The translations under genes were made by a program, and so were the position numbers. A DNA stretch of 64,000 nt from Amphiscolops sp. MND2022 (taxonomy: Eukaryota): NCBI GenBank assembly GCA_964187785.1, contig OZ076409.1, positions 64,916,001 to 64,980,000 of the forward strand, given 5' to 3'. Of this stretch, positions 1 to 31,300 are shown piece by piece. A model generated the notes under the pieces. It was not told the DNA's origin. It ran no database searches and was given only the letters and a program-made list of their open reading frames with translations. Within the stretch, counting starts at the first letter, position 1; each line of letters begins with the position of its first letter.

Positions 1-737
1 TGCATATATTTATACAATTCTTTAATAAATTGATATCTGATTGATTTTTTATCTCCATAATTTAGATCATATTTCATATCATTTAGGAAAGTATAAATTG
101 AGTCCCAGTTATTTATTTGTTTGTCAAATTGCGTATTAGTTATAAAATATTGAAGATCTGGGTCATTTAAATTGTATGAATTCCCATTCTCGAAAGTTAT
201 TGTTGAACCTTTGATTAGCACTTGTTGTGGGTTATGGGGATTAATTATGAATATATTTGGATAGTCTTGTATAAATGGTTCTAAACTAAATTGACTTTTG
301 TTTTTGTCATTAAGTAAATTAGAAACTGTTTTTACAATACTGGAATCAACTTGATTGGAAGTAACAAGACTTGTAAGAAGCTGATTATTACGATTCGTAA
401 TTTCATCATATTCTTGTATTCCTTCTTTAATTGATTTCTGTAAATTTTTATTCAAAGCGTTACTCGATTCTCGAATAGCCTGTGTTTGATTTTTTATTGC
501 TTGTACTGTTTGTGAAGCTGCGCGCGAAGCTTCGCGGGTAGAATCATGTAGTGCTTGTATTTGTTTTTCATTTGCTTCTACCTGCTTTGTAGTAACAGGT
601 TCAAAAACTTCTTCAAGGTCATAATGAAAGTCTTGTTTCCCTAGTTTCTCTTTTAATCTTTCTTTAAAAATTAAGGATTTTGTTTCTTGTAATTTTTTTA
701 ATTTTTCCAAGTCATCTCGGGTGTGAATTGAATACAT
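1..737 (-). CDS. Polinton uncharacterised coiled-coil protein, runs off the window edge (MYSIHTRDDLEKLKKLQETK...LEEVFEPVT...)
   Basis: Open frame read manually from ATG 737 to the window start. It is preceded by the same TAATAAATG motif as its neighbours. It is absent from the ORF track because it has no stop in the window. Confidence 0.7.
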   Translation of the reverse strand, partial: MYSIHTRDDLEKLKKLQETKSLIFKERLKEKLGKQDFHYDLEEVFEPVTTKQVEANEKQIQALHDSTREASRAASQTVQAIKNQTQAIRESSNALNKNLQKSIKEGIQEYDEITNRNNQLLTSLVTSNQVDSSIVKTVSNLLNDKNKSQFSLEPFIQDYPNIFIINPHNPQQVLIKGSTITFENGNSYNLNDPDLQYFITNTQFDKQINNWDSIYTFLNDMKYDLNYGDKKSIRYQFIKELYKYM

Positions 738-763
738 TTATTAAGTATAATTAATGCATATAA

Positions 764-1300
764 CTAGTGGATTTTCCCCAGATACAGGCCTTTACCATTA
801 GTTCTTGCTTTTCTGTTTGTGTTGCTTGTGTTAGCTGCTTTGCTGCCGTTGCCTGCTGCTTTGCCTGCTTTGCTGCGATGGCTTCCGCCTTTACTCGACA
901 ATGCTTCGGCTTTGTATAGGCCCTTCCCTTGATGAACAAATTTAATAACATCGGGGGCAGTTGCGGCAATTAATCGTGGATTTTTACTTGCTGCTGCAGT
1001 TCCAATGTTTGCTGCTATTTCTAGAGCTCTTGCTGGGTTATTGAGTATTTTCTTTCCAACATTTTTGGCTGCAGAACCTAAATGTTTGAAAAAGTCCCCC
1101 AATCCTTCCCCATCTATTGTTCGTTCAGATACAATTAGACTCTTATTTCTGTTACACACTACACAGTTGCCACGTAATGTGTGTACGGGCCTGCCCATCT
1201 GTATCCCAGTGTTTGTAATTTCTCCATGAATATTTGTGGTGGGGGAATAATGTTTTCCACCAACACAATATGAATTATTTATAAATTTATTATAACTCAT
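764..1300 (-). CDS. Polinton virion core / candidate membrane-lytic protein (178 aa)
   Basis: N-terminal YCxxxxH...CxxC zinc-ribbon-like part. IDGE|G matches the adenain consensus (M/I/L)xGx|G and is followed by the amphipathic GLGDFFKHLGSAAKNVGKKIL. Basic G/A/K-rich tail with GKGLY twice. Confidence 0.6.
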   Translation of the reverse strand: MSYNKFINNSYCVGGKHYSPTTNIHGEITNTGIQMGRPVHTLRGNCVVCNRNKSLIVSERTIDGEGLGDFFKHLGSAAKNVGKKILNNPARALEIAANIGTAAASKNPRLIAATAPDVIKFVHQGKGLYKAEALSSKGGSHRSKAGKAAGNGSKAANTSNTNRKARTNGKGLYLGKIH

Positions 1301-1329
1301 TTATTAGAAAAAAATTGTATTAAATCCTA

Positions 1330-2673
1330 TCATATTTTGATAATTTGAATTGTGAAGGTGAGTGTCTCCCCGTTGAAATCAACTGAATCATGATTAGAGT
1401 CCTCAAGGAAAAATTGGATGGTGTCCAGTCGTGTTTTGTTAATTGATTTGTACAAAACAGTTGTGGGTTCTTTTATAATTTTATATCCGGGAGGTGCGCT
1501 TAAATTGAAAGAAAATAAAATTTGCTCTCGTATACCATTAACAATTGAACCATCTACACAGTCGCACTTCAGATGAACTTTGTCGGTGGTTGTTATCATG
1601 ACTGGTTTTTCTGATTCATGTGTTCCGGGTGGGTACACTGTGTGTGTAAAGCCCAAGACTGTGTTAAGTTTGGAGTTAAATTGAATATTGTTTGAGGTTG
1701 TTAAAACTGATTTCATTGATATTGTGTCAGGTATTAAATCAAATTTGAAATCATAATCACTTTCATTAATTTTTTGTTTAATAGCATTATTTATATCAAC
1801 TAGTTCATAAACTCCTGGTGTTAGATAAATTTCAAAGAAATCGTTTTCAACAATGTCAAAAGGGGGTAAATTTATTTCTTTTATTTGCGAAGCTACGCGG
1901 TTTGTTTGGTTTACTTGCGAAGATACGCGGTTTACTTCGCCATCTTCGTCATCTTCGTCATCTTCGTGATTTTCTTGGGTTGTTTGGTTTACTTCGTGCG
2001 GAGCTGTGTGTGAAGCTTCATCCTCCAAAAATATTTCCTCCCACTTTATTTCTTCCCAATTTATTTTTACCTGTTTTAGGTGATCTTTGTATTCTTTAAT
2101 TATTCTTTCTCGATTTAGTTTTGCGAGGCTTTGCTCTTGTTTTAATTTTTCTTGGTTTATTGTTTCCTGGTTGAGGCGATTGTTGTATATTTCAATGAGT
2201 GATTTAACTATCTTTGTTAAATAATCGAAATCTATTCTAGTAAGTTTATTCTTTTTAGAATAACTATTAGTAATAAGTTTATTGGCCTTTTCTACAAATT
2301 CATTATACTCACTAAGTGTGTAAGGTTTACCAAAATAAGTAACGTATAAATCTTCAACAAACAGTATTAATCCACTATCAAGTTTAAGTTCTTTGAGTTG
2401 TTGATCATTCAGAATAATTTGTAGTTTGTTATTCTTTTCAGTAATGTTATATACAGTGTTGTATACTTCTAAACTTGTTACTCCCATCATCCATTTTTCA
2501 GGCAGTAGTAATGGAACATCAAATGAGAAAGATTCTTTCTGTTTAGTCATTTTAAATTCTAGAGTTTCTTGTGGTTTAGAATGAGTGTTTTCAACAATTT
2601 CTTGATTAGATTTTGCAATACTTAAAAGAAGAGATTCTTTTTTATCATATGTTACGAAGCTTGATAGATCCAT
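1330..2673 (-). CDS. Minor capsid protein (penton-like single jelly-roll) with a large internal insertion
   Basis: Motifs typical of Polinton minor capsid proteins: YNITEKNN, LTPGVYEL..IN, LGF, VHLKCDCVDGSIVNG..ILFSF, PPGYKI, DFNGE..TF at the C-terminus. Confidence 0.75.
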   Translation of the reverse strand: MDLSSFVTYDKKESLLLSIAKSNQEIVENTHSKPQETLEFKMTKQKESFSFDVPLLLPEKWMMGVTSLEVYNTVYNITEKNNKLQIILNDQQLKELKLDSGLILFVEDLYVTYFGKPYTLSEYNEFVEKANKLITNSYSKKNKLTRIDFDYLTKIVKSLIEIYNNRLNQETINQEKLKQEQSLAKLNRERIIKEYKDHLKQVKINWEEIKWEEIFLEDEASHTAPHEVNQTTQENHEDDEDDEDGEVNRVSSQVNQTNRVASQIKEINLPPFDIVENDFFEIYLTPGVYELVDINNAIKQKINESDYDFKFDLIPDTISMKSVLTTSNNIQFNSKLNTVLGFTHTVYPPGTHESEKPVMITTTDKVHLKCDCVDGSIVNGIREQILFSFNLSAPPGYKIIKEPTTVLYKSINKTRLDTIQFFLEDSNHDSVDFNGETLTFTIQIIKI

Positions 2674-2721
2674 TTATTAAGAAAAAAATCCTTTTTTCTC
2701 AGCTCCGCGAAGCTGCGCGCA

Positions 2722-2970
2722 TTATAGATTAAATTGTTTGAATCCACTAGCGGAAATGTTATTTATAAATTCTTGCCTATCTTTTGATAATGTTTTCTTA
2801 TGTGTGAAACTCTGCGGCTTCGATGAATTTTTTCCATGATTTTGATTTTGATTGTGAAGCTGTTCTGCGTTAGCTGTCGCGGAGCTGTGCGTGAAATTTT
2901 GTGCGTTAGCTGTCGCGAAGCTGTGCGAGATAATTTTATATTGAGTTGAATAAGTATTTATTTTCTTCAT
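2722..2970 (-). CDS. Small Polinton ORF of unknown function (82 aa)
   Basis: ATG overlaps the protease stop (ATGA) and sits in the shared TAATAAATG motif. The ORF fills the gap between protease and penton genes. Confidence 0.5.
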   Translation of the reverse strand: MKKINTYSTQYKIISHSFATANAQNFTHSSATANAEQLHNQNQNHGKNSSKPQSFTHKKTLSKDRQEFINNISASGFKQFNL

Positions 2971-3416
2971 TTATTAGGTTTGAAAGTTTGATAGTATAAA
3001 TTTAGTACTGCATTTTTGAACCCAATTTTATTTGTGAGATACAGTGTGTATAAACAATACGCCGCGCAATAACTGTCGTTGGTCTGAATTTGATATTCTG
3101 AATAAATACCATTTTTAATATGATTAAGTATATTAGTTGGGGGTGGGCAGCCATATGAATCAAAATAATTTTGATTTGTAAACATAACCCAATGTGTTCC
3201 CACTGAGGGATGTAAGTTAACTATACCACTGGTAGTGTTAAACTTATCATCTCTCATGTATATTCCACAGCTTTGCCCACACACTGTATTTATTTCGCCG
3301 GAGGCACCAAGCCTATCAAGTATTTCTTTTATTTTTACATTGGAAGTTGCTTCGTTTTTTAGTCCGTATTTTTCAACAAATTCTTTGAATGATAAATAAT
3401 TGCGAAGCTGCGCCAT
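2967..3416 (-). CDS. Adenain-like (adenovirus/Polinton maturation) cysteine protease
   Basis: GIVNL...GTHWV...YFDSYG...QIQ...YCAAYC supplies the catalytic H, D, Q and C in adenain order. Confidence 0.88.
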   Translation of the reverse strand: MAQLRNYLSFKEFVEKYGLKNEATSNVKIKEILDRLGASGEINTVCGQSCGIYMRDDKFNTTSGIVNLHPSVGTHWVMFTNQNYFDSYGCPPPTNILNHIKNGIYSEYQIQTNDSYCAAYCLYTLYLTNKIGFKNAVLNLYYQTFKPNK

Positions 3417-3640
3417 TTATTAGTTATTTTTCATTGGTGTGTATTAATATTGTACGAGGCTGCGCGTGGCTAAAATTATTTCCCATGTGGTAAAAATACA
3501 AAACCCATAGGCATGCTCATTTGCATTTGTATATGCATTGACATGCCTATGGTAAACTCAAAGCCCATCGGGAGTCCGTTCCACTAAGAGTTTCCACAGC
3601 AGGGATTATCCTTTTTAAGAACTGTGCCATTGGTGATTAT

Positions 3641-3758
3641 TCTCCCATAACATGTAAGTTGTAACAAAGACTGGGGGACGTTGGATAGAAGTGAACCCCA
3701 AACACTCCGGCCGAAGCCTTAACTTTAGTCAATGCTATAACCACTAAGCTATGGGAGA
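3641..3758 (-). ncRNA. Candidate structured Pol III-type small RNA in the Polinton subterminal region
   Basis: 9-bp terminal inverted repeat (TCTCCCATA/TATGGGAGA), A-box-like TAGCTTAGTGG, GGC-TTCG-GCC hairpin, and a GGAGTG..CACTTC stem with a weak B-box. No adjacent T-run terminator. Confidence 0.3.
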
Positions 3759-3803
3759 CAAAAATGTGTTAGTTGTAGTTATATAAGAATAACGTATGCG
3801 CCG

Positions 3804-3910
3804 GTACATTAACGCTGGTTGTACATTAACGCTGGTTGTGCATTAACGCTGGTTGTACATTAACGCTGGTTGTACATTAACGCTGGTTGTGCATTAATGC
3901 TGGTTGTACA
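3804..3910. repeat. Six tandem 17-bp repeats GT(A/G)CATTAA(C/T)GCTGGTT in the Polinton terminal region
   Basis: Units start at 3804, 3821, 3838, 3855, 3872 and 3889, with no spacers. Confidence 0.95.
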
Positions 3911-5874
3911 GCAACGTGTTATTATTACACATTGCGTAGCTTCGCGATAGCTTTCGCGCATCATAGAGGTTAGTGAATTTTGCTTCATGGTAAAAACACT
4001 ATTTTTGATGATTTGTTTTCTAAAAAGTCCTTAAAATCAATGGTTTTGAGTACTTTTAATTTTTGGGGTTTTTGTGGCCCGTATCGGGATTTCCACTACT
4101 ACTCCGGGGCGGCTAGGATAGCAGATCTCTATCTATGTAATCACACGTTATAATTGTGACCATGAAAAAAGGTGAAGAAACTATTTTGAAGAAAACGGCC
4201 AAGAATCTGGTACACTATGCCGCAATTTGTTCAGGTTTTGGTCACGTTTGCAACATGTTCAATGACTAATGGGTCCTTTCGCGTTCAAGGTGAAAGGAAA
4301 TACCTAAATAATTACAAAGTAAGCGTGACCGCATTTTTCATCGAGTGTTTCCAAGGAGACAGTTATTAGATCCTTACCTCAAAGAAGAATTTTCGACCAT
4401 GCAGAAAAACAGCTTTCAAAAGCTGATGCGCGTTTCAGAACTTGCTACATATTTGCAGTTTGTTGAAACCTTTCTTGAATTTGGTTGTCACCTGTTTAAT
4501 TTTTGGTTTAATTTAATATAGACAAAAATCAAATTTCATTTTCAAGACAATGATTCAGTATAACAATATTTTTTTCTTTCAAGTCAAGACTGCTTTAAAC
4601 ACAGGGCATGTCTTTGATGTCATTGTTTTGAAATTGACCTTCATATTTAGAATCGGTTTCAAATCGAATGAGCGGGTTGTTCATCGCAGGCATATATCTC
4701 GCGGAGTTGGCAAAACGGAAACAGTACGTTATTTATGTCAGATATTTCATATTTCAATAGACAATCAGACTACAATTGCAAATTGAATTGTGAGTAAATA
4801 AAACCCTGTTTTTCTGCTTTTCCTACTCCGAGTTGTGCTCTCAAGAAAATCCGAGTCTCGAAAACATGCATTCCTAGCCAGATAGATGACGAGGGAGTCG
4901 TGCTCACAGTAGTCACCGGAAGTAAATTTGAATTGAGAATAAGTATTCACCATCTTTCCATCAAGCCTCTGCGAACAAACCAGCATAACTTTTGCCAAAG
5001 ACAAAAAATAATTTACAAAAAAAACGTTTAGTTAAATCGCACGTTGAAAATCGTTTAACATGCCAACCGTGTTCACACGTAAGTGATCTGTTGTCCGTTT
5101 CTTCGAGGTTCAGATTAAAATGTCTCATGAGCGGTAATATTAAGGGCGCCCAAAGTCTATGTACTTTGGTCAAAACGGTACTGTTTTCAGTTCACAATGG
5201 AACTGAAAGCATGGACCGTGATGCAACGCGAGCTTTGTTCCGTATGGCAACTCGCCTCATACCAAAATCAGCAACCAAGGTTTTGACATCACGAATTATG
5301 TTAATCGTTATCGCTAATACGATTACTCAATGATAAACTTCACTCGTACTATTATAACGCTCAACTTCAAGTCTGTGTCTAGACGGAATTGAACATTTAT
5401 TCATCTCGCGAATCGAAAAAAATGAAACTGAACAATTTTATAAGCCGTAAAAACAAAATTTCCCATTATAAAAAATGTTGAAACAGCAAAAAAACGAGCA
5501 ATTTTGAATTTTCCTGCATTTCACTAGTTGCAACACGGATCGCTGAATTATTCACATGCAGCTTCTAATCCGCAAAACTGATGATTAAATGGTGTCAAAA
5601 TTTTGCTAGCTAACACATCAACTTAGGTAGTACATGGAAATGCATATTACTATATTAAGTGAGCGAATTCGAGAAAACATGGAATCGGAATAGCTACACA
5701 GAGGCGAAGCCGTGCTTCGCAAACACTTGCGAACTTTTGAAGAAAACCAAATAAGGAAAATCATACGGAGAACCAAGGGTAAAAGGACATTTATTGTTGA
5801 AATTTCATCTATTTTACAGCGCCAAAAAATACCCGAAGAGATACGCATAAATCTCATAGTGCCAAAAAATCTGA

Positions 5875-6908
5875 ACACAGAGGCGAAGCGGTGCTTCGCA
5901 ACACATGACGAAGACAACTATTATTTTAATATGCGTATATATATTATTTTAATCGCATGCGTATATATTCAACAGTTCAACTTTATTCAATAACGTCCTT
6001 ATGGCACAGTGGTTAACACTTATGCCGCGCAATCGGGAGGCTGCAGGTTCGAATCTCTCTGGGGTTTTGGCTTTTCTCTAAAAGGCGCTTATTATGAAGT
6101 TGGCTATTGTGGAAAAAAAACTTTTAGCTGGACTGCAATGCACATTGACTTCGTCATGTGCAAAAAAGGGACCCTTTGGGATTTTTTAACATTCGTTCTA
6201 TTGCAAAATATCAAACAAATTGAAGGGAGGACCCTTTGGATACATTAACACAGAGGCGAAGCGGTGCTTCGCAACACATGACGAAGACATCGATTATTTT
6301 AATATGCGTATATATATTATTTTAATCGCATGCGTATATATTCAACAGTTCAACTTTGTTCAATAACGTCCCTATGGCACAATGGTCAACACTTATGCCG
6401 TGCAATCGGGAGGCTGCAGGTTCGAATCTCTCTGGGGTTTTGGCTTTTTTCTAAAAGGCACTCATTATGAAGTTGACTATAGTGGAAAAAACTTACTTAG
6501 CTGGACTGCAATGCACATTGACTTCGTCATGTGCAAAAAAGGGACCCTTTGGGATTTTTTAACATTCGTTCTATTGCAAAATATCAAACAAATTGAAGGG
6601 AGGACCCTTTGGATACATTAACACAGAGGCGAAGCGGTGCTTCGCAACACATGACGAAGACATCGATTATTTTAATATGCGTATATATATTATTTTAATC
6701 GCATGCGTATTTATTCAACAGTTCAACTTTGTTCAATAACGTCCCTATGGCACAATGGTCAACACTTATGCCGTGCAATCGGGAGGCTGCAGGTTCGAAT
6801 CTCTCTGGGGTTTTGGCTTTTTTCTAAAAGGCACTCATTATGAAGTTGACTATAGTGGAAAAAAACTTACTTAGCTGGACTGCAATGCACATTGACTTCG
6901 TCATGTGC
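5875..6908 (-). mobile_element. Three tandem HINE-A copies (about 290 bp each, period 373 bp) with a tRNA-derived cassette
   Basis: Copies start at 5875, 6248 and 6621. SubTIRs CACATGACGAAG / CTTCGTCATGTG and hairpin GCGAAGC-ggt-GCTTCGC. Plus-strand A box TGGCACAGTGG and B box GGTTCGAATC (e.g. 5995-6066). Confidence 0.75.
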
Positions 6909-6983
6909 AAAAAAGGGGGAGAAGTCTCATAGTGCCGAAAAAAGTGAGAACCTTCTGCTTCGGAATACTTCTTAAAAAAATCA

Positions 6984-8084: not shown

Positions 8085-10205
8085 TCACTGTGAGTTAGCA
8101 AAATGTAAAGAAACAGAACTCAGAATCTCTGCTCGGCACAAGGGACACTCGTAGGTCTTGTGGGAACAATTCGAGCAGCAGCAAACGTGACCACAAGGGA
8201 AGAAAACAACATTGGCGTTGCACTCCATGCATATGCAGCATTCGTTTTCTAGTATTATAGCCGCAGGCAGTTGCGAGTTGGCACTCACCATCGATTGCTT
8301 CCTTGGGGTGCCCTTTGGGGTAAACTGAGGCGTGACATCAACAGACTTCTTGCGTACATCATTAAGAGGCAATTTATCGATTTCTGAAAGAACAGTTGCC
8401 CGCAACCCAATTTCAGTCATGCCCATCAGCCTCAAATTGTCGTCATTCAGAGTGTGAAGAGATTCATACGTCATTTTGTGTTTAGCGAACAAGGCAGTGT
8501 ACTCCTGGGCTCCACATTTATGCAACAACTTCACAACCCGTACATCCAAGTCGAACTCTTTGGAAGCGATTGACGCGGGTTTCATGCTCAGAAGTCTTTG
8601 ATACTGAACCAACCAATACTGCTCGTTTTCGTCTTCCTTCTGTTGCTCCATTTGCATCAACAATTGACTGATTTCCTTTTCTCGAAGTTCACGCTCTTCG
8701 TGAATCTTACACAGAAGTTGGGAAAGTTGTTCACGCTCATTAGCCAAGGCATTCCGATGGTCATCCTCTGATTGCATGTCTCGTTGCTTCATTTCAAGAA
8801 GCGTCATTTGAGTCAACTGCTTCTCAATCATTTCCACGTGGTGCATCAGCTGGTTTCGTTTCACGTCTTGTTCAACTAGCATCTGGTGAACAAGTTGCTT
8901 TTGAACATTCTCGCTCTCTATATAATGTGACATAACGTGTGCGCTCTGCTCTTCCGCTTGAATCAAAAATATGTCTAAGACTTGGTCATCAAGTTGCATA
9001 TCAGTCAAAACCTTCTTAATCTGCCGATCACGGTTCTCGTCTAAAACCTTTGCCTTTTCTTCCAGCTCAATCATTTCTTTCAGCTGTTTTTCCATGGATT
9101 GCTTTATTTTCTCCTCCTCTAAAGCCCTGTACTCATGCACTTGAATTATTCCCAAATGTTCTTGCTTCATTCTTTCACTTTCTTCTTTCAAAAACGCCTC
9201 CTCAGTCTTATTCAACTTCTCATACATGGACAGCAAATCTTCGGTGGCTTTCCTAGTTTTCTGTTCCAAATCCAGCAGAGCCTTTGTCCAGCTGCATCTC
9301 TGCGCATCAACTTGGCGACTGAGGGTTTCAATTTCCTCAGCTTTGGACTTTTCCATTTCACTCAAAGTGGTTAGAAGCGCAATCTGCTCGTTTCTTTGTT
9401 GAGCCAGGTACTTGGATATCATAGCATCCTGAGCATCAACTTCTTTCTTGAAGGCTTTATGTGCTTCGTCTAAAGCAGTCGGGGCGCTGGCACAGCGGTC
9501 AAGAATTCGTTTCAAATAAGTAGAATCGTCCAAACGAGCCCTGTCAAAATCATCAGGTAGCTTCTCAATGTACTGATACTGTGTAAAAGGATTCAATGAA
9601 GACATTATGTCTTGGATACTTCTCATTGAATACCTTGTCTCCAAAGGCGTTGACTCAAATTTGAATTCTTTCAGCAGAACCAGCTCTGAAAACTTTACAG
9701 GGAGTGTTGAAATTGCATTGCTGGATATATCAAGACTTCTCAAACTTTGCAGCTCGGTAACACTGGGGGGCAGAAAGTGAAATCTGTTGTTATCAAGTGT
9801 GAGTATCTGTAATTTGTTCAAACTGGACAGGTCTAGAAGATCATCCAATTTGTTATGAGACAGATTCAGTTCCAGCAGATGAGTCAGACTAGAGACAGAA
9901 GAAGGAAGAGACTTGAGCTTGTTGTTCGAGAGGTCTAGCAACAAAAGACGGTCAAACTTCTGAGGCCCTGTCGAAGAGAAGATAGAGTAAGGCAACTTGT
10001 CTATATGATTGAAGTGAAAAACGAGGCCCTTTTTATTGAGCAACTGTGCCCATTCGATTACAGAGGCTGGGATGGTGGTCAATTCGCAGTTTGAGAAGTC
10101 CCAACAATTGATAGTGTCCAAGTCCCTTTGGTAGTGGGTGAACAAGTCATGGAACCTCTTCTTGGCCTCCTTAGACTGGTGATTACTTCTGAAGATAGAG
10201 TGCAT
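8085..10205 (-). CDS. LRSAM1: E3 ubiquitin ligase LRSAM1 homolog (LRR, coiled coil, SAM, RING); intronless CDS
   Basis: N-terminus MHSIFR..SKEAKKR..DFSNCELTTIP, LRRs (LDLSNNKLKSLP), a long coiled coil, YWLVQYQRLL, a SAM-like helix bundle and a C-terminal C3HC4 RING (CCICME..PCGHVCCC..C..CPLCR). The true ATG is probably 10205 rather than the TTG at 10232. Confidence 0.93.
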   Translation of the reverse strand: MHSIFRSNHQSKEAKKRFHDLFTHYQRDLDTINCWDFSNCELTTIPASVIEWAQLLNKKGLVFHFNHIDKLPYSIFSSTGPQKFDRLLLLDLSNNKLKSLPSSVSSLTHLLELNLSHNKLDDLLDLSSLNKLQILTLDNNRFHFLPPSVTELQSLRSLDISSNAISTLPVKFSELVLLKEFKFESTPLETRYSMRSIQDIMSSLNPFTQYQYIEKLPDDFDRARLDDSTYLKRILDRCASAPTALDEAHKAFKKEVDAQDAMISKYLAQQRNEQIALLTTLSEMEKSKAEEIETLSRQVDAQRCSWTKALLDLEQKTRKATEDLLSMYEKLNKTEEAFLKEESERMKQEHLGIIQVHEYRALEEEKIKQSMEKQLKEMIELEEKAKVLDENRDRQIKKVLTDMQLDDQVLDIFLIQAEEQSAHVMSHYIESENVQKQLVHQMLVEQDVKRNQLMHHVEMIEKQLTQMTLLEMKQRDMQSEDDHRNALANEREQLSQLLCKIHEERELREKEISQLLMQMEQQKEDENEQYWLVQYQRLLSMKPASIASKEFDLDVRVVKLLHKCGAQEYTALFAKHKMTYESLHTLNDDNLRLMGMTEIGLRATVLSEIDKLPLNDVRKKSVDVTPQFTPKGTPRKQSMVSANSQLPAAIILENECCICMECNANVVFFPCGHVCCCSNCSHKTYECPLCRAEILSSVSLHFANSQ

Positions 10206-11545
10206 GTCAGTATCTGAAAAACGATAAAACAATGCTAGTCAATTCGAAATACCTCACGTTTTCGTAGTTCCAGTTTCACATTAAATGAAAACGAACTTTT
10301 TGACAAAGGTGAAAGACACGAAGGTGAACGAATGGGGCAAAACATTGTAATTATTATTTCAGATTCGTTGGTTATTGCTGGTTTGAAATATATCTTATCG
10401 TCATAGTCTTTCCTTTTGAGTTAATATTGGCAGCATGAGGTAGTTCCTTTTGAGTTAACAATTACAATAGTCACGAAAAAACCTGTAAACGGTAAAAACC
10501 ATGGATTTAAAAATCACTGTGGTCAACTGATTGCCCAAGAATCTTTTGTGCGATAGGCATACAATTACTTGCTAGCAACGTACAACGGTGCCCAGATCAG
10601 AAATCCGGCAATGACAGGCGGACGGGAATTACATCTCGGAAAATAGTCAAAAAGTTGTCTGAGTCAACGCTAAATTATCCTTCAGAAAGTCTCAACAGGG
10701 GAGGTCAACACCCGCGTTAATATACAACTGCCGGTAACTCATGAAAAAATTATGTATTGAATTGATCGCCGCAAGTTTTCCTCAAACCAATCCTTCAGAC
10801 TCGCCCATGCGACTAGGTCCAAAAACGACAAAATTAACAAAGAATCACCGTAGTCAAAAATGCTCGTTTCAATGTTTTGATTATTGCGATCTTCAATTTG
10901 CTCTGCATTCTCTACTTTGAGAAAATGCATATCGGCAAAACTGATTTCACGGTTTTGGTGCCATCATAAAAGAGGAAAGTTCGCAAGAAAAAATCCGAGT
11001 ACATTTGTCTTTCAGGAACCTGGGGCACATGCAGGAGACGAATCTTTTTTTTTCTTGAAAAAAATAGAGTAGCAAAAAACTAATACACTCGATGTCGCTG
11101 ACAAAAATATTCAAATCGCAAGAACTTTTCACAAAAGTACTTGACACAAACGTCCTAAGGGCAAAGCATTCTCAAAGTTCGATCACAATAACGGGCATTT
11201 TTGAAATCAAACAAAAAATACAAACACTTAGATTTTCTCTTTTAACATTTTCCGGAAATTATCATGCAATATCTCCAAAACCGCTGCTCGTAACAAAAAC
11301 ACACGCAACAAACATTGTACCTTTGATTCCAATCTCTAACTTTTAAATAACAATTTTTCAAAAGAGACTCTCCTTAAAATTTGCACCACAAAATGTTTCG
11401 AGAAGTCAATTTCAAAAAAAGTTGAATATAAAAGTTAACGAACGGTGTCAAGGCCAAAAACTGTTCGAAGGTTTTTCTTCTGACCAGCAGCAGTCTTTGA
11501 GATATCGCGTACGATGTGAGAAAATTTTCATTCGAATTTAGGACA

Positions 11546-13581: not shown

Positions 13582-14493
13582 ATGGATGAAAACACGGAAG
13601 AAAACCCAAGAGATGGAAACAACACACTGTCTTCATCGGGTACACGGCAAAACAACCAAACACTGCCGAACGATACAATGAACAGGACGGCTGACCGGAC
13701 CTGCACTCAGAAATTGACCATTCCCACATTGGAGAAACACGACCACACCAGTGCAAACTTGTGGTGGAGAAAATTCGTCCAATACATAAAAATGACGAAA
13801 GAAATTGACCTGTCAACCATGACAAACAACAAAGAGATACTGACACAATACTGTGACCAACTCGAAACGGAAATTAAAGATATTTTCATCTGGACAGAAT
13901 GCTATCACGGAAATGACAAAAACAATCAGAGAAAGAGAACCGAGCTCACTAGCATTGTATAAACTTTACACACTTTTCCGACTACACTTCACACCGGAAA
14001 GGAACGTACAACATAGTAGAGCCGATTTCTTCGACCTAAAACGAGAAGACGGTGAATCCGCAGCAGACGTGTGGAAACGAATACTAGAAATTGAAAGAAA
14101 CTGCGAATTTGAAACAATAACCGCGGCAGAACTTCTAGCATCAAAATTCTTGTCAGTCATCGGAAAATCAACCGGAGACTACGACCTAAAGAAAAAAATC
14201 AGAAAGAGTGACATGTTGGTAGAAGCAATAACTGACGCGATACTAGAATACACTTACGACAAATTAAATGACTCACCCGAAACAGAAGAAAAGAAAATAC
14301 GTTACTTGAATAAACGTAAAATAAAACCAACAAAAGAACCGGAAAAAACCGACAAAATTCAAAAAAAGTCGATTGCAACCGTTGCGGAGCACCAAACTGG
14401 TCAAGACAACATGAATGCCCAGCCAGAGGAAAGAAGTGTGCAAAATGCGGAAAAATAGGCCACTTCGCCAAATGTTGCCGCACAAATAAAAGA
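13582..14493 (+). pseudogene. gag: Gypsy-1 gag, frameshifted, with two zinc knuckles
   Basis: Overlapping ORFs 13582-13962 and 13853-14458. CNRCGAPNWSRQHEC and CAKCGKIGHFAKCC lie in a third frame continuous with pol. Confidence 0.85.
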
Positions 14494-17400
14494 GTGAACC
14501 ATATAATGGAGGAAGAGACAAGTAGCGCGAATGAAGACGATTGGACACCGAACACAATCCATTCAGTGAAACAAAAGATCCATTCAACACGATCAATAAA
14601 CAGCAACGGACCGGACTTCTTCACAATCACCGCACTGGTCAATAACCGACCAATCAAATTCATCATTGACAGCGGATCACCGGTAACATTAATACCAAAA
14701 TCACTATTCAACAACATCACAAAATTACACCCACTAAAAACGGAATACAGGGATGTAAATGACAACCGGATACAATTTGAAGGAAAAACGATAGCCAAAG
14801 TGGAAATCGACGGAAAACAAAAAGAACTGGAAATAGTGACCACTAAAAGAACCAACCCATTACTGGGGCTAGACTGGATGAAAAAGCTGGGAATAACGCT
14901 GGAGACGGACAAAACCGTCCCACAAATACAACAAATAAAAGAAGACCCAGACATAACATCATTGAAAACGAAATTCAAGAAACTTTTCACCGAAAACCAT
15001 ACAGTAAATGGACTGGAAGTAAAGATACAACTAAAAGAAGACGCGAAACTGATACAACAGAAAGGAAGACCAATACCGATTCACCTCCAACAATCGGTGG
15101 GGAAGGAAATAGAAAAACTAATAAAACAAGGACATATCGAAAAAGCCAACAATATCGACGAAAACTGCTTCGTAAGTCCAGCCGTGATCACGGTAAAGAA
15201 AGACAAATCAATAAAAATCGCCCTAGATTCGCGAAAATTGAATGAAATAACCGTGAAAAGAAAGGCACAAATGCCTAACATGGAGGAATTGATTTCACGG
15301 ATATCAAGAAAAATAGCAGATGGCCCAGCAGATGAGATATGGATCTCAAAATTCGATTTAGATTACGCATACGGACAACTACTGTTATCAAGAGAAGCTA
15401 GAAACTTGTGTATATTTGCCGTAACCGGGGGAAATTTTACCGGTTACTACCGCTTCCTAAAGGGCTTCTACGGTCTAGCGGATATACCAACGGTCTTTCA
15501 GGAGAAGATTGACCAAACACAGGATAACAAACATCCAGCGTGGTTAGATGACATCATCGTCGTAACCAAAGGGTCAAAAGAAGAACACAAAAAAGAATTG
15601 ATTGACGTCCTAACCAGACTAGAAAAAGCAGGATACCGCTTGAGTGAAACCAAGTCCGAATTTTTCAAAACGGAAATTGAATGGATAGGCCACAAAATTG
15701 ACCAGGCCGGTATCCGACCACTTCAAGACAAGTTGTTAGCCATAAAAGAACTAAAACAACCAAAAAATGAAAAAGAACTAAAATCATTTCTGGGAGCCAT
15801 TCAATACTTGTCAAAATATATCGACAACCTCTCCGCCCAAACCGACAGCTTGAGACAGTTACTGAAAAAAAACGAATGGATATGGACGGAAGAACACACA
15901 CAAGCATTCGAAAACTTAAAACAAAAGATCACGGAGATACCGTGTTTGGCTCACTACAACTCAGATTACCCAAATGTGATAACAACGGACGCAAGCACAA
16001 AAGGCTTGGGAGCTACCCTATGGCAAGAACAACCGGACGGGAAACTAAAACCGATCGGCTTCGCCAGTCGTTTCCTTTCAGACACCGAAAAGAAATACGC
16101 AATAAATGAACTTGAATTATTGGCGGTAGTATGGGGTTTAGAACATTTCCGCTTATACATTTACGGAAAACCGATCAAACTTTTAACCGATCATCAGGCA
16201 CTAGAACCATTAATCAAACGGAACCGGTCCAATAAAACATACAGCGCACGCTTAACACGATGGCTGGACCGATTAGCACATTTCAATATTAACGTACACC
16301 ATATAGCCGGTAAACATTTAGCACTTACGGATTATTTCAGTAGAAATCCGATACTACCACCGCAAACAGATGACGCATACGATGAAGAATACGTAATCAA
16401 CAACATATTACCGCACTACAACTTTATCTCCAAATATGGTTGCCTTAGCAACCAAACTGACAAATCAGAAAACAGAACGGAGAAAAGTGAACGCAAAGCA
16501 AACAACAAACCACGGAACAGCGACACACATAGACGAACTGCCATTGATTGCCTTAACACCGACACGTTAACACGCTTCAAACAAAAACACTGCCAAAGCA
16601 TCAAATTGACAATGGACGCAAATACAATAAACGAAATTGAAGCAGCAAATCCAACCGCGGAAACAATTGAATTGACAAACCGCTGGCGAGAAATCGTTAA
16701 ACCCGGGATTTATCGATTAACCGGGGGAAAATGGAAACGCTATCACGAACCAAAATTCTTACGCAATGAAAGAAAGGTGATAGAAGAAAGACTGCAACAA
16801 ATTATGAAAAACCACGAAACGGCAGATCTTAGACAAAGAATTAGCCCCAAACAGACGGGAGGCTTTGTACCACCCACCAGACACAGCGAACAATGGACGG
16901 TTGATTCATACTGGGACATGGACCGTCCCACCCCAGTCCAACACGACAGACCCGGACCATCCCAACAAACTTACATCCAGACAGCACCGATGGAGGAAGG
17001 CGAAATAGAAACCGACACCGATCAAGACCCATCAATCTTAGAAGTACCGGCAATAAATTGGGCACGCTATGTCGGAGTAAAGAGCGTCCAATACGTGAAG
17101 ATGGGACACGCTCCAAAAATAACCGCCGAAGAACAAAACGACTGGGATTCGGAACAAGCAGTGCGAGAAACGGAGAAAAATTTTTCTACCGATCTACAGC
17201 TGCTTATGATAGAGACGACGAACGACGCCAGCCTACTGAAAACACTAGTATGTCTGGAAAGACAGCAACATGAGCTGATACCCGAAGAATATCTATTAGT
17301 CAGAAAGAAATTGTCAAGCAGATTCGGCCTCGTATTCATGGAAGACAAAATCGTGGTCCCAAAGAATCTACGCACCACGGTTATAAGCCTGCTACACAAA

Positions 17401-19211
17401 GGACACCCGGCCATCAACAAGATGACCCTAGCAGCCCGACACTTCTGGTGGCCACGGATAACTGAAGCCATTCAGAAAAAGTGCGACTCCTGCATACCAT
17501 GCAAAATGTCCGGTAAGAGCATTAAACCTAACATACCGTATACGGAGTAAAACAATCTACCACCGGTAAACAATCCGAACGAGGAAATTCAACTGGATTT
17601 CATTGGCCCGATTACAGAAAATAACCGCCGGTTTTATATATTACTATCCATAGACCGATTTAGTAAATGGCCGGCAGCCAGTTTTTGCAAAAATACGGAC
17701 GGAGAAACGGCGGTAAAATTTATCGAACAGTATATGCAACTAAATGGGATACCGAAAACGATCAGAACGGATAAAGCAACCGCTTTCACAGGACGTCTCT
17801 TCCGCGATTTTTGTAAAAAAACATTACATCAAATTAATATACGGCACACCGTATATTCATACCCCAACAGGCCTAGTAGAGAGAGGAGTCAGAACACTCA
17901 AAGAAAATCTCTTAACAAACTTAAAAGCCGGAGAACGTTTTGGAAAAGCTCTAGATATAGCTCTAGAAATAATGCGTAAAACACCACACACGAGACTGAA
18001 AAAATCAGCTTTCGAATTACACTACGGTCGAAGCCCAAACACAGAAGTTAGTAACCTACTAAACTTAGATAGTTTGAAGAAACTAACGGAAAATCCCATT
18101 TCAGCAAAACCAGATACCTTACAGGTATGCTCATTCAGTGGAGCCGGCGGTGTGTCCGACCAGCTACCAATGAAGCCGAAGAAAAACGATAAAGAAGTTA
18201 GTAACTACCCATTCCTTTTCTTAGAAAAAAAAACATCAAAAATCAAAATTCGAAAGTGCCTACATGGATAAACCGAACATAGCCGTGTCCGGAACAAAAC
18301 ACACGGTGACAACACCGGATGGAAGAATAATACATAAAAAATGTATTAGTAAACCACTTAATAATTTTAACCAGGACTGCAACAACAACAGAGGAACCGG
18401 GTCGAGAGGACCAGATGGCCGGTTCACGAAGTCACCATCCAAAACAAGAAGGACATATATACTGGAGTCAGACAACGAGTCAGAGCCAACGCCGGACCAA
18501 ACAGACAACACTACGGTCAAAAAGGGTACATTCGGCCGAGGCAAACCAGTACAGAAACGGGAACGGTCGGAGTCAAGCTCACCACACAGCACACCGGGGG
18601 GCACAAACAAAAACACCGGCCCGCTCACCATAACAACCAACATGACGGACACGGAAATCAACCGTGCCATCAGCGACGTGAAACAAGCCAACGAAGAGCT
18701 TTTTATTAGAGACGAAAACGGTAAGGCGTTTAATAATGATAACATATTCCCTAACGAGGGGGAAGAGAATAGCCTTGATCTAGATTTTGCCAACAACCTG
18801 AGCTCAAGTACTGAACTAGAAACAGATGTGAAACGCGAAGAAAAAAAAGTACGCAGATCGAAAAGATTACCAAAAACTAACCCAATTATCAGATATAATA
18901 ACCCAATATGTCATGATTACAGGAACCACCGTAGAAAGGCTGAACTCGGAAGAAACACCGGGCCAAACCCAAACAGATATGGAAACAAGCAACCAGAATT
19001 AAACCCAACAGCAGACAACAAACAGACGTCACGGACAGAAGAACACTGTGACAAAAGCCAATGCGAGGACCGGTTATCCGTCCACAAACATATGGACCAA
19101 TGGAGGAATCACCGCCATACAGAAGCTACACAAAACCCCATTGGCCAGTCGACAGCCAATAGTGAAGGGGGGAATGTAGTAGAAGACTCAGACTCTTTAC
19201 ATACATGTTAA
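14494..19211 (+). pseudogene. pol: Gypsy-1 pol (PR, RT, RNase H, extra domain, integrase, long C-terminal tail) with one stop and frameshifts
   Basis: IDSGS protease; RT DLDYAYGQ / GFYGL / WLDD; RNase H TDAS, ELELLAVVW, TDHQAL; integrase HHCC then LDFIG, RTDKA, VER. Stop at 17548-17550 and frameshifts in A-runs near 17820 and 18230. Confidence 0.92.
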
Positions 19212-23358: not shown

Positions 23359-24564
23359 TCACCACGGCGCTCCCGTGTTGGCCAAACGACGCATTCGTCG
23401 GGTATTTCTATCCTGATCCCTAATTTTCTTCTCCATCTCAGCATCAGTTAGTGTCTCCATCACAGGTCCCCATTGGTCCAGATCATGTCTGTTCCTCAAA
23501 ACTACGTCAACGACTGGTAAAGGGTCTTCACTGAAAGCATACGTTCGCGCATGCCAAGATAGTTGACCTCTGATGCTATAAGCGATCGCAGTTGCAAATT
23601 CTCCTCCCAGACCAATTTCGGAACACATTGTCATTGCAAACTGCTCAGGCGAGTTCAAACTCTCCGACATGTCCCACTCGAATTGGTCTACTAGAGAGAT
23701 ATTTCCTACATGTATGTTTAACTTAATTTTCACTCTTTGGTCGGTTTGATTTTCAAGAATCTGTTCCATCGGGAAGGCTTCTATTTGTTGACGCATGCTT
23801 TGAGCAATAGCCGGCACAAAAGACTGAGGATTCAGATCCAGATCTTCACAGAGGATCTCGGCAAACATTTCAGGCGTTATCACCTGCTCATTTTTGTTCC
23901 ATGTAAAACAATCGCGTAATTTCTGTCCATCGGCTTCTATGTCCAATCGAATTGGCACAAGAATTTCGGTTTTACTGGCATTTTCATTGAACAAATCAGG
24001 ATCTGTATCATCGAAACAAAGAGGATAGTTTCGCTTACTGCGAGCCGTGACTCGATTTCTGTTGATGGGTGTAGAACAAGGAACAGCGTCCAAATGGTGA
24101 GAAGTATTAGGTGCAGCTTGAACCCACGAAGAACTTGGGTTGTTAGCTCCACGCTTACTGCTTCTACTTGGCACAGGTGTACCACTAATTGCAGCAGGAG
24201 TTCCAGGCGCAGCCATTTGACTACCATCTTTCGCTTGGGATTCACTACTTTGCACTGTTGATCCTGAATTTTTGAATTTATCACCATAGCCCGAGAGCAA
24301 TTCGTCTATTTCACAGGCTTTGACTAAAGTTATGTTTATTGCACTTCCTTGAGTAACATAGCAAGCATCAGTTAACATTTTTCTTTCAGCAGGTGTTACC
24401 ATGCGCCTCCACAAACCCGGAAACTTCCGGTAAATAGCTCCCCGGAACAGTCGCAGATACTGCCCAACATCTGACCCGATCATATAGTACTCACCGTCAG
24501 TTTCTAGTTGGAAGCGAGTAGGTTCTTTACCATACGTTTGAACTTTGGACGGTTCATCAGTCAT
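23359..24564 (-). CDS. SMARCB1: SWI/SNF core subunit SNF5/INI1; intronless CDS
   Basis: [28 protein letters not shown]-terminal winged helix, [43 protein letters not shown], and the C-terminus [28 protein letters not shown]. Confidence 0.98.
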
Positions 24565-25174
24565 CGTTAATGGTTTTCAAGTTACCTGAAAAAGAAATCA
24601 CAAGATGTGGCATCAAAGAATGTGCTTCGGATTTCACATACTGAAAATGGTTTTTTCGAGAATTGTTTTTTCTTCTATCAGATATCATGGATATTAGTCA
24701 TCAATCAAGTGCCATGTGTATCATCATGTTGGGGGAGAAGACACACCCGTGGTCTACAACGAAAGTAGGGAACCCCATACTACCAGCCACTATCCTAGTC
24801 GACCGGTAGAAACAAATTCTTAGAAAGCTGCAATTATACACAGGTTTTTCAAAAATATGCATCCGTTGCTTCTATCCATTGAGATCCGTTGCATCAAAAA
24901 GCTGCCAGATCGTTGATCGTCGTGCGAACGACAGAGCAATTTACAGACACGCGGGATGAAAATTTCATTGCTCTCGCCTAAAGAACCCTGTACTTCCATG
25001 GCCACCGGTTGAAAAATGTATCCTTTGTCTATTAATTAGCGATACTTCTAATTTTTTCCTCTATTAGGTATCATGGATCTTCGTCATCAATCAAGTTCCA
25101 TGTGTATCATCATGTTGAGGGAAGACACAGGTTTTTTTTGCTCTATCAGATATCATGGATCTTCGTCATCATCA

Positions 25175-28303: not shown

Positions 28304-31300
28304 GGGTGGGCGGAAGTAGGTCGAAGGTGTTATACGGTACACATACCGGACCGACATTTCGGTAAAGCTGTCAATCAAACTCAAACCTTTCATAGATCTA
28401 TCTAGATTATGTCTGTACATGTTGGTAAATATACCGTCCTAGTCACTTCTCGAGACTACATCATTCAGTACAAAAGTTTAGAAAGAGATAAACTGTTTTA
28501 TGATACCTTTCTACTAAAGAAAGATTTTAAATAAAACCTTTGTTTTATTATTCGAACCAAGAAATAGAACATGGCGCAGTTAGCTATTTAAAGTACCAAA
28601 TACATTTACAACAAAGAAAATGGCAGAAGAAAACAAAATCGAAGTACCGAACTTCGAAGCCACATCAGACGGGAAAAGAATTTTAACTCCGAAAAATGGC
28701 TCGAAAGATTTCGTCAATTCACCAAAAGAAAACACACAATGGATATAACCGAACTAATACTGGGAGCCGAAATAACACAAACCGGTTGGTCCGCAAAAGA
28801 AGCCGAAATCCAAGAAGCCTTTATATGGGGAATTGGCCACGAAGCCTTATATCAAATGACGGGAGCGGAATACAAAACAGACCCCGACAAAATAGCGGTA
28901 AAAGACCTCATCCGACTATTCAACGAATACTTCCTACCGAAGCGGAACACTTACCATAACTGCGGGGAAATCTTCTGGACAAGACAACCAGAACCCGAGA
29001 CACCGGAAGACTTCTGGCGGAGACTCATAGAAAAAGAATGCGCATTTGAAGGAATAACAGCCGAAGACCTATTAATTTCAAATTTCATGACCACTATTAC
29101 GGATACAAAACTCCGGGATAAATTGATGAAAGAGAAAAAGCTCGAACTGAAGAAAACAATTGAAATGATCAAACAAAACACATACGAAAGAAAAATTTGG
29201 AAAAACATTATACCGGAAGCACTGATACCACACCGAGAAAAAGAAATAAAAGAAGAGCCAATACAAAGAATGGAAAGGTCTGACACAAGACCGAAGAATA
29301 AATTTACCAGTGAAAAACCATGCAAATTCTGTAACGCACCAAATTGGAACCCCACTCATAAATGCACGGCATTGGGAAAACTTTGCAATAATTGCGGAAG
29401 GAAAGGACACTTCGCACGCGTATGTAGACAGAGAGAAAATTACAAACGCAAAGTACGAAACATCACCGAAGAAACGTCACAGACACGGAGAAGAATCCGA
29501 CGAATCAGAGACGAGTATACATCGAATCGAGAGAATAAATAGAATCACGGATAGAAACAAATACCAGGTAAAAGTGAACAGAATCGAAAAAGAATTTATG
29601 GTGAATACCGGATCACCAATTTTGATATTGCCCATAGATGAAAACATAATGAAACAAACCGAGATACAGAAAGTGAAACACCGATACCAAGATGTGAACA
29701 AAAATGAAGTTAAAGTCCGTGGCAAAACACCGGCCGATATTGCATACGAAAACAACAAACAAAAACTGGAGATTTTGATTACCGAAAGAAATGATAATAC
29801 ACCATTAGTTGGAATGGACTGGATGAAAAAATTTAAACTAACGATTGGAAGTATCCGGATACAAGATAATAACCAATCGGAGAACAAACGAACTTTCGAA
29901 AAATTTCCGGACTTATTCAAATATAACACCACGTTAAAGGATACCGAGATAAATATCCAACTATAACCGGGCCACTATCCGGTGAAACAAAAAACAAGAC
30001 CTATTCCACTACACCTACAAGAAGATGTCGGGAGAGAATTGGAGAAATTAATAAAGTTCGGACACTTGGAAAAAGTGAAGCACGTAGATGAAGATTGTTT
30101 TGTTTCGCCGGTGGTAATTACGGTAAAGAACGACAAGTCGGTTAAAATTGCATTGGATTCGAGAAAACTGAATGACAGCTGTATTAAAACCCGACCACAC
30201 ATGCCGAACATGGAAGAGTTACTAAACCAAAAATCGGTAGAGATCACAAAAGACCGAACGAAAGAACTAATAATGTCGAAAATCGACCTCGACTACGCAT
30301 ATGGTCAGATGAAATTGTCAAAAGAAACAAGCCGGCAATGCGTATTCGCAATAACGGGAGGAAAGTTTAGCGGATTTTACCGATTCAAAAAGAGATTTTA
30401 CGGTTTGGCCGATATCCCAACAATATTCCAAGAAAAAAATGACCGAACACTGGAATACTCTACACCAGCATGGCGTGACGAAATAATTGTAGTAACCAGA
30501 GGTGACCGAAAAGAGCACGAAAACAAATTGTATTAAAGAAACTAGAAGATGCAGGATACCGAGCAAGTGAGAAAAAAATCCGAATTCTTTTTTCACAAAA
30601 CGAAATGGCTCGGACACGAAATTGACGAAACGGGAATCAAACCTAACAAAGAAAAAGTAAAGGCAATACTGGATTTGGAACACCCGGAAAACCAAAAACA
30701 ACTGAAGTCATTTCTCGGCGCGATACAATACCTCGCAAAGTTCCTACCGAGATTATCGGAAAGAACAGAATAACTCCGACGATTACTGAAAAAGGATTCG
30801 GTATGGAACTGGGGAAAAGAACAAGACGAAGACTTCAATAAAATAAAAGTTTTGTTAACCGAAGAACCCTGCTTAGCTCATTACGCAAAAGACAGAAAAA
30901 ATATTGTTACAACCGACGCAAGCAAAACCGGACTCGGAATAACATTATGGCAGAAACAATCGGATGGAGAAATAAAACCGATGGCATTCGGTAGCAGATA
31001 TCTAAACGACACCGAAAAGAATTATTCGATCGGAGAACTAGAATTACTTGCAGTTGTTTGGGGACTTGAGAAAGTCCGATTTAATCTATACAGAAAGAAA
31101 GTTTACTTATGTAGCGACCACCAAGCTCTTGAACCTTTAATTAAAAGAAATCGGTGTAATAGACAATACAGCGCGAGACTAACTAGATGGTTAGACCGAC
31201 TCGCACACTTTGATATTGCCATCCAGCATATCGCAGGAAGTAATTTAAAATTTACCGACTTTTTCAGTAAAAATCCGGTAGAGAAAGCAACGAACGAAGA

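Follow-up and report, generated by a model that had tools for sequence, protein, structure and literature searches.

Poxvirus-late-type TAAAT(G) starts on every gene of an animal Polinton suggest possible dependence on a helper virus

Polintons/Mavericks (adintoviruses) share with the element described here AGT-ended inverted repeats, a 6-bp target duplication, a pPolB, an rve integrase, an A32 ATPase, an adenain-type protease, and a PF21738 double-jelly-roll capsid (PMC8502044; this and all other sources are cited for the accessible parts of their text). Particles of animal Polintons had not been observed (PMC8097293). Mavirus and the endogenous Cafeteria virophages are likewise integrated pPolB/rve elements whose gene starts match the late promoter of a large virus; in mavirus, the promoters correspond to the late motif of CroV (10.1101/068312), and the match is the basis of helper-triggered activation in mavirus and EMALEs (10.1101/068312; EMALE summary, 10.1101/2025.10.09.676808). 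Entomopoxvirus-associated PLVs have been proposed as hyperparasites of poxviruses (Barth et al. 2024, PMC11296320), and the top HHpred match of the AHEV_PLV1 capsid is PF21738, the family of our Polinton capsid; however, these PLVs were found in occlusion bodies, and AHEV_PLV1 lacks an integrase. The words "promoter," "motif," and "TAAAT" are absent from the accessible main text of that paper, and its supplement gives proteins and short repeats. The present analysis asks what drives transcription in animal Polintons, and whether these elements live as autonomous viruses or as hyperparasites. The yeast cytoplasmic linear plasmids pGKL1/2 are also pPolB elements. Their TAAAN initiator, with slippage producing 5' poly(A) leaders, resembles the motif reported below, but these plasmids themselves encode an RNA polymerase and a capping enzyme, and they do not integrate (PMC6211774).

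An intact 15.6-kb Polinton, with inverted ends and a 6-bp target duplication, reaches with its right end into the window (the whole 64-kb stretch of DNA analyzed). The right terminal inverted repeat (positions 3495 to 4103, about 600 bp) is of the AGT-ended kind that marks Polintons/Mavericks, and its end reads ACTACTACT; it is followed by the target-site duplication CCGGGG (4104 to 4109, plus strand), whose second copy lies at the left end of the element (G000:C1:64904512-64904517). A 6-bp duplication was present in 17 of 18 family copies examined, two of which have one common flank. The copy number is high, with 98 capsid matches in the genome sharing at least 93% identity and 1,300 to 2,900 candidate copies at first look. 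The pPolB is a 1297-aa ORF without a direct PF03175 match at E 0.01, but ORFs of the same genome that do match PF03175 are 30 to 31% identical to it across about 1000 aa (E 1e-134). The integrase (PF00665, E 7.5e-11) and the double-jelly-roll major capsid (PF21738, E 4e-21) were recognized directly, and the A32 ATPase domain (PF04665) was found in two ORFs, which sets the element apart from the Polintons/Mavericks in the accessible text of PMC8502044. ORF267 gave no usable Atlas match, and the PHROGs comparison of the element ORFs gave nothing informative.

Five ORFs of the Polinton, all on the minus strand, open within the window, and each starts with the 9-mer TAATAAATG. The outermost gene encodes a cysteine protease of 149 aa (2967 to 3416; motif at 3414 to 3422) of the adenovirus/ASFV type, with invariant H, Q, and C and profile matches to S273R (E 1e-10) and adenain (E 4.5e-8); going inward from the right inverted repeat, it is the first gene, and no gene lies upstream of it. 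Next come a low-complexity ORF of 82 aa (2722 to 2970), retained in both sister families at 40 to 100% identity, whose motif (2968 to 2976) overlaps the protease stop codon (ATGA), and a 447-aa ORF (1330 to 2673; motif at 2671 to 2679), likely a minor capsid (penton) protein as judged from a weak match (E 0.008) between a profile of its relatives and a PDB penton protein. The 178-aa ORF (764 to 1300; motif at 1298 to 1306) combines a Cys knuckle at its N terminus, which matches DUF5679 weakly, with an amphipathic segment; it is likely a virion accessory protein, putatively cupiennin-like. The last one is a conserved Polinton ORF of 353 aa, of which the window holds the 5' part (1 to 737, 245 aa; motif at 735 to 743), the rest lying beyond its edge; the C-terminal PSDP..L..L motif of this ORF is common to distant relatives. 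The preliminary description had reported the 9-mer at all five starts, T7 runs ahead of two of them, and its lack in host genes, and each of these observations was reproduced: the 9-mer occurs exactly five times in the 64 kb, always on the minus strand and always with its ATG opening an ORF (shuffled windows averaged 0.95 occurrences, and 0 of 100 reached five); the T7 runs precede the motifs of the ORFs starting at 1300 and 2673; and the two host genes inspected in the window, which from their translations we take to be LRSAM1-like and SNF5-like, begin GAC/ATG and ACG/ATG.

Over the whole element, TAA directly precedes ATG (TAA/ATG) at all 12 gene starts, polymerase, integrase, ATPase, and capsid included. 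The earlier statement that every gene carries the 9-mer holds for the shorter ATAAATG (12 of 12), while the full 9-mer is found at only 8 of 12; likewise, the motif does mark the structural module to which it had been ascribed, but also the replication and integration genes. By comparison, TAA/ATG was found at 2.7% of 1959 ATGs in host DNA, at about 3.4% of the non-start ATGs of the element, and at 1 of 22 background ORFs of at least 200 aa. Another Polinton lineage of the same genome, taken as a control, has the motif at 0 of 22 genes. A general host ATG context is rejected by the host and control counts, and a trans-splice acceptor is also rejected because no AG precedes the ATG. The low-complexity gap after the capsid gene holds two extra 9-mer copies without a credible ORF behind them; a 105-aa ORF there was rejected as a gene, being mostly antisense to pPolB with a start that differs among copies.

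The fused AATAAA, present at 11 of the 12 starts, could be taken for the poly(A) signal of the upstream gene joined to the next ATG, and AATAAATG is also found at 67 and 91 nt past the stop of the capsid gene. We give this explanation almost no weight. As the preliminary description had argued, the protease gene starting at 3416 has no upstream gene to terminate, and the same is true of the head-to-head genes: the integrase and one ATPase gene lie 34 nt apart in the window copy and 14 nt apart in a sister family, with the motif on both. Sense ORFs show no avoidance of AATAAA, with 36 occurrences in 13.6 kb (z +1.3), and the post-capsid copies vary in number, with none within 150 nt in several element copies. 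The lineage provided 99 distinct start contexts, covering 40 to 100% protein identity; of these, TAA/ATG is kept in 83 and TAAAT lies within 8 nt of the start in 91, whereas the fused AATAAA is found in only 52; all 14 capsid start variants have TAA/ATG and none has AATAAA. The conserved core is TAAAT, not AATAAA.

The lineage contexts also bear on a translational role, in which the in-frame stop before the ATG would serve termination-reinitiation on read-through mRNAs, or the motif would simply be an AT-rich start context. Two junctions are indeed coupled (TAA ATG directly follows the stop of ORF267, and the TGA of the protease gene shares bases with the following ATG), and four single degraded copies have TGA/ATG instead. 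However, four genes lack a preceding gene on the same strand, the remaining tandem gaps span 26 to 338 nt, and true stops are mixed (8 TAA, 3 TGA, 1 TAG) against a pre-ATG triplet that is TAA in 12 of 12. In addition, starts that are not fused still keep the core (TAAAT-A-ATG, TAAAT-T-ATG, TAAAT-AGAA-ATG), and the motif places a T at -3, an unfavorable Kozak context. A translation signal is very improbable. TAAAT(G), which is retained in two sister families, is very likely a viral transcription initiator that acts gene by gene.

The architecture resembles the vaccinia late promoter, in which TAAAT(G) overlaps the start codon and a T-tract is centered about 10 nt upstream (PMC11980589, PMC5294985, PMC4542343); the vaccinia initiator allows TAAAT(G/A) (PMC5294985), which leaves room for unfused starts like those above, and its late signature is that the 10th base before TAAAT is a T (PMC11980589). 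In the Polinton, a T-rich tract lies 7 to 12 nt upstream of TAAAT, and the 10th base is T in 8 of 12 genes of the window copy (p about 0.1, not significant by itself) and in 10 of 11 in the sister family (p about 0.003), which is not independent of the window copy; a permutation p of 1e-4 for the tract overstates the effect, as its controls were mostly coding region. The 12 starts and the lineage counts support a start-fused initiator of poxvirus-late architecture throughout the Polinton. Unlike in vaccinia, all genes use the motif, DNA polymerase and integrase included, an extra conserved AA precedes TAAAT, and none of the 12 ORFs is recognizable as an RNA polymerase or a capping enzyme. Nor did 20 further copies (a small sample of the first-look candidates) hold any accessory or pox-derived genes, and RPB2 domains occur at only three loci of the genome; the element differs in this from the yeast plasmids, which encode both enzymes. 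Compared with mavirus, the Polinton lies in an animal host, has the pox-type TAAAT(G) instead of the CroV TCTA, and has a Polinton capsid family.

Similar starts were found beyond this family. A distant free viral contig, L195 (pPolB 28% identity, GC 38%), has TAA/ATG at 7 of 7 starts, a fused AATAAA at one of these, T at the 10th base in 2 of 7, and a head-to-head gene pair with a 34-nt gap. L175 to L177, relatives that share the capsid family of the window element, have TAAA near 13 of 16, 11 of 16, and 18 of 19 starts, respectively, with an A-rich block 15 to 21 nt upstream that resembles vaccinia intermediate promoters; the pox-intermediate core AAANAA-N10-14-TAAA was found at 11 of 19 starts in L177 and at 0 of 12 in the window element. 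Single-protein or narrow queries gave no close relatives in viral contigs, and a quick-mode pPolB tree (40 rows, loci with at least 6 ORFs and at least 500 aligned aa) did not group the window family with L195, its backbone being without resolution. TAAA-type starts occur at 60% or more of ORFs in 11 of 45 AT-rich PLV contigs (counted without a shuffle control), and being so common there, the motif cannot pin the helper to poxviruses.

Since all 12 genes start with TAAATG, the poxvirus late start signal, the Polinton is likely transcribed by an RNA polymerase borrowed from a pox-like helper, on which we infer that it depends. TAAAT(G) is probably recognized by a helper of the pox type or by some other large DNA virus; the fuller proposal, a compact poxvirus-late-type initiator on every gene that is served by the machinery of a co-infecting large DNA virus, pox-like or other, and not by the host alone, we favor by a slightly smaller measure. 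Transcription would start inside the AAA of TAAAT, and polymerase slippage would add a 5' poly(A) leader standing in for the 5' UTR. The chromosomal element would stay silent until infection of the cell by a helper, whereupon polymerase, integrase, and virion genes would be expressed together and the element could spread as mavirus does.

Alternatively, TAAAT could be the element's own initiator, used by host Pol II/TBP in the nucleus, perhaps with an unrecognized element factor; the pox likeness would then be convergent or inherited, and no helper would be needed today. Helper genes of the kind that the preliminary description proposed to seek in host reads, NCLDV/pox RNA polymerase and late factors, did not appear in the assembly: profiles for VLTF3, the NCLDV capsid, G9/A16, rpo30, and RPO7 (PF04947, PF04451, PF03003, PF12410, PF05864) each gave 0 matches, in searches run without positive controls, and the three RPB2 loci and the four family-B polymerase loci (the two checked being Pol zeta and epsilon) fit the host set. 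The high number of capsid matches and the duplications in 17 of 18 copies also agree with host reading, as do several element ORFs without an assigned function; under the helper model, so many germline insertions would need a helper to reach germ or stem cells repeatedly, which counts against it. The two motif copies with no gene behind them, the low count of T at the 10th base in L195, the separation from L195 in the pPolB tree, and the lack of pox-derived genes in the 20 further copies weigh in the same direction. Furthermore, PIWI loss can allow transcription of animal Polintons, as in planarians, where they were de-repressed (PMC8532177; in the accessible text, a helper is not mentioned and the Polinton type is not stated). 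On the other hand, the second Polinton lineage of the genome lacks the motif and AATAAA is tolerated within ORFs, and a start in TAAAT would leave a UTR of 1 to 2 nt, too short for ordinary scanning unless slippage occurs. A reading of TAAAT as a TATA box fails: a start 25 to 30 nt downstream would remove the N-terminal CxxC motifs (MENCSIC, MNCLIC/MKCLIC) kept in both families. We consider reading by the host unlikely.

A literature search, made mostly outside subscription papers, gave no published report of TAAAT(G) starts in Polintons; the accessible text of 10.1101/2024.03.23.586382 and 10.1101/2025.04.19.649669 holds nothing directly on the motif, and the start-fused TAAAT(G) on every gene distinguishes the window element from the Polintons/Mavericks of Starrett et al., the words "promoter" and "helper" being absent from the accessible text of PMC8502044. 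The two Polinton lineages of one genome split cleanly, with poxvirus-late-type starts at every gene or at none, and this split therefore offers a sequence-level predictor of lifestyle together with a sharp 5' poly(A)-leader test. It is tentatively conceivable, at somewhat less than even chances, that this lineage comprises endogenous virophages of an undiscovered poxvirus-like virus, carried in the germline, each gene under a vaccinia-late-type promoter, switched on by the helper polymerase, and possibly serving as an inherited antiviral defense. If so, a Polinton's helper would be predictable from its promoters, be they late (TAAATG), intermediate (TAAA), or of host type, the host should have a pox-like virus, and provirophage biology would extend beyond protists to animals.

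The window (G000:C1:64916001-64980000) holds the right end of a 15.6-kb element, and joining neighbouring stretches to it placed the whole element between C1:64904518 and window position 4103. The element has AGTAGT ends, an inverted repeat of roughly 600 bp and a CCGGGG duplication, and all Polinton hallmarks tested were found in it. Its 12 open genes comprise pPolB (1297 aa, with an endonuclease-VII-like insert), a capsid gene (PF21738), an integrase (rve), two A32-like ATPases and two ORFs without assigned function, together with, in the window part, a 353-aa ORF, a 178-aa ORF, a likely minor capsid gene, an 82-aa ORF and an adenain-type protease. The ATPase genes lie in tandem (L013:7034-8284 and L013:8623-9711, L013 being the coordinates for the neighbouring DNA); the N-terminus of one product contains a hydrophobic segment that likely spans the membrane, and that of the other a Cys-rich zinc-finger region.

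A capsid search gave 98 scored matches of 93-100% identity, which indicates a high-copy family. The nearest copies are 99.5% identical across 4.1 kb, 6-bp duplications occur at 17 of 18 copies examined, and none of 20 further copies examined carried accessory genes. Two copies on different contigs (L016-L017 and L019-L020) have identical flanks and the same target duplication, so they represent either a single insertion that was duplicated along with the DNA around it or a duplication introduced by the assembly. This genome also contains a sister family whose capsid is about 80% identical and whose genes are arranged in another order. A GC-rich near-palindromic repeat of the GCGAAGCT-CGC type (window 511-536, 1886-1929, 2706-2719, 2863-2934, 3401-3414 and 3933-3946) recurs throughout the AT-rich element, within ORFs as well as in the gaps between them, and seems to go along with in-frame length differences among copies. 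A 17-bp tandem repeat array lies within the terminal inverted repeat (window 3787-3922), and the capsid and pPolB genes converge on a gap (L013:4655-4765) made up of a variable low-complexity tandem array with 0-4 AATAAA copies at most 150 nt from the capsid stop.

The preliminary description had reported TAATAAATG at every Polinton ORF start in the window, and we found five copies there, all on the minus strand and all at an ORF start (shuffled window: mean 0.95, never five). The T7 run ahead of two of them was also recovered, and both host genes inspected lack the motif. Once the element was extended leftwards, the proposed presence at every gene held for ATAAATG (12/12, pPolB, integrase, ATPase and capsid genes included), but the full 9-mer was found at only 8/12. 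TAA precedes about 3% of other ATGs (52/1959 in host DNA and 18/536 non-start ATGs of the element) and 1 of 22 background ORFs of at least 200 aa, so the motif is not the host's general ATG context. A second Polinton lineage in this genome (PF03175 matches, pPolB identity 30-31%, GC about 40%) had TAAATG at 0 of 22 ORFs in three elements. The start motif is a real feature. As to the host DNA of the window, the LRSAM1-like (8085-10238) and SNF5-like (23359-24576) genes are apparently single long intron-free ORFs. Three 373-bp tandem repeats with a tRNA-like segment lie at 5874-6919, and ARAGORN called no tRNA in the window; two LTR-retrotransposon-like gag-pol regions, frameshifted in part, occupy 13844-19211 and 28592-33212.

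Across 99 distinct start contexts of the element and sister families, TAAATG occurs in 83, TAAAT within 8 nt in 91 and fused AATAAA in 52; capsid starts have TAAATG in 14/14 and AATAAA in 0/14, which excludes AATAAA as the conserved unit. Three sister-family genes keep TAAAT with 1-4 bases between it and the ATG, so a fused stop-start is not the unit either, and these observations together identify TAAAT itself as what is conserved. The integrase and ATPase genes, both starting TAAATG, stand head-to-head (gap 34 nt in the element, 14 nt in the sister family) and have no upstream gene to terminate, which argues against a poly(A) signal. AATAAA inside sense ORFs (36 in 13.6 kb) is not depleted versus synonymous shuffles (z +1.3), and this tolerance speaks weakly against the poly(A) reading; the control lineage, of different base composition, has 0.39 per kb. 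An N-terminal CxxC directly after the ATG is kept in both families; from this we infer that the ATG is in use and that a TATA-box reading, which would put the start 25-30 nt downstream, is disfavoured. TAAAT at the starts is element-wide, lineage-conserved, independent of AATAAA and upstream genes, and absent from the co-resident lineage.

TAAAT is very probably a transcription initiator, judging from the sequence. In vaccinia late promoters TAAAT(G) overlaps the start codon, and the tenth base upstream is a conserved T amid other Ts (PMC11980589, consulted in part); a T core lying 5-7 bp away from TAAAT(G/A) is also described (part of PMC5294985). Gene-weighted frequencies here are 74-78% for T at -14, -13 and -10, 65% at -12 and 47% at -11, with G nearly absent from -15 to -9. 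The tenth-base T is present at 8/12 element genes (p about 0.1) and at 10/11 sister-family genes (p about 0.003), the latter being orthologous and so not independent. On balance, the machinery of a large-DNA-virus helper would be the probable reader. The simplest one would be a pox-type polymerase slipping on three template Ts to make an A leader, as occurs in vaccinia and yeast linear plasmids (part of PMC6211774), and the first round from the chromosomal copy might follow the mavirus model, in which a helper late factor enters the nucleus (10.1101/068312, in part). Host Pol II reading the same TAAAT initiator is the main rival, unlikely yet not negligible. Two orphan motifs that follow the capsid stop and differ from copy to copy, and the PIWI-controlled expression of planarian Polintons, whose type the consulted part of PMC8532177 leaves unstated, count against the helper reading.

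Five virus-specific profiles, run without a positive control, had no match in the assembly. General profiles, run with working controls, detected three RPB2 loci and four family-B polymerase loci, consistent with the host's own set; two of the latter were verified as Pol zeta and epsilon (L292, L297), likewise long intron-free ORFs. Since a lytic cytoplasmic helper does not have to leave a trace in the genome, its absence from the assembly argues neither for nor against it.

Scans with pPolB and capsid yielded 101 distinct viral/metagenome loci, 45 with at least four ORFs. The distant viral contig L195 (1-9034; 9 kb, GC 38%, pPolB identity 28%) starts 7/7 of its ORFs with TAAATG, one of them with a fused AATAAA. 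It shows the T at position 10 at only 2/7 and has a head-to-head gap of 34 nt, equal to the element's; a quick pPolB tree, with an open backbone, did not join it with the element family. Its 503-aa ORF is a protease-integrase fusion. In L175, L176 and L177, three free Polinton-like contigs of the element's capsid family, TAAA lies no more than 12 nt from 13/16, 11/16 and 18/19 starts respectively and is combined with an A-rich block 15-21 nt upstream, a bipartite arrangement resembling vaccinia intermediate promoters; TCTA lies near 5/16 starts of L175. In 11/45 loci, many AT-rich and counted without shuffle control, at least 60% of starts have TAAA, so AT-rich start-fused motifs are widespread in such elements and do not identify the helper.

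Like mavirus, the element carries helper-style starts at every gene; by its sequence it is classed as a Polinton, not filed as a virophage. The closest biological precedent is the entomopoxvirus-associated PLVs, one sharing the PF21738 capsid family (PMC11296320, whose main text, as consulted, does not mention promoters). TAAAT(G) starts in Polintons appeared in no paper found, and supplements and subscription papers may have them. Within the literature searched, what is new here is TAAAT(G) at all gene starts of a Polinton.
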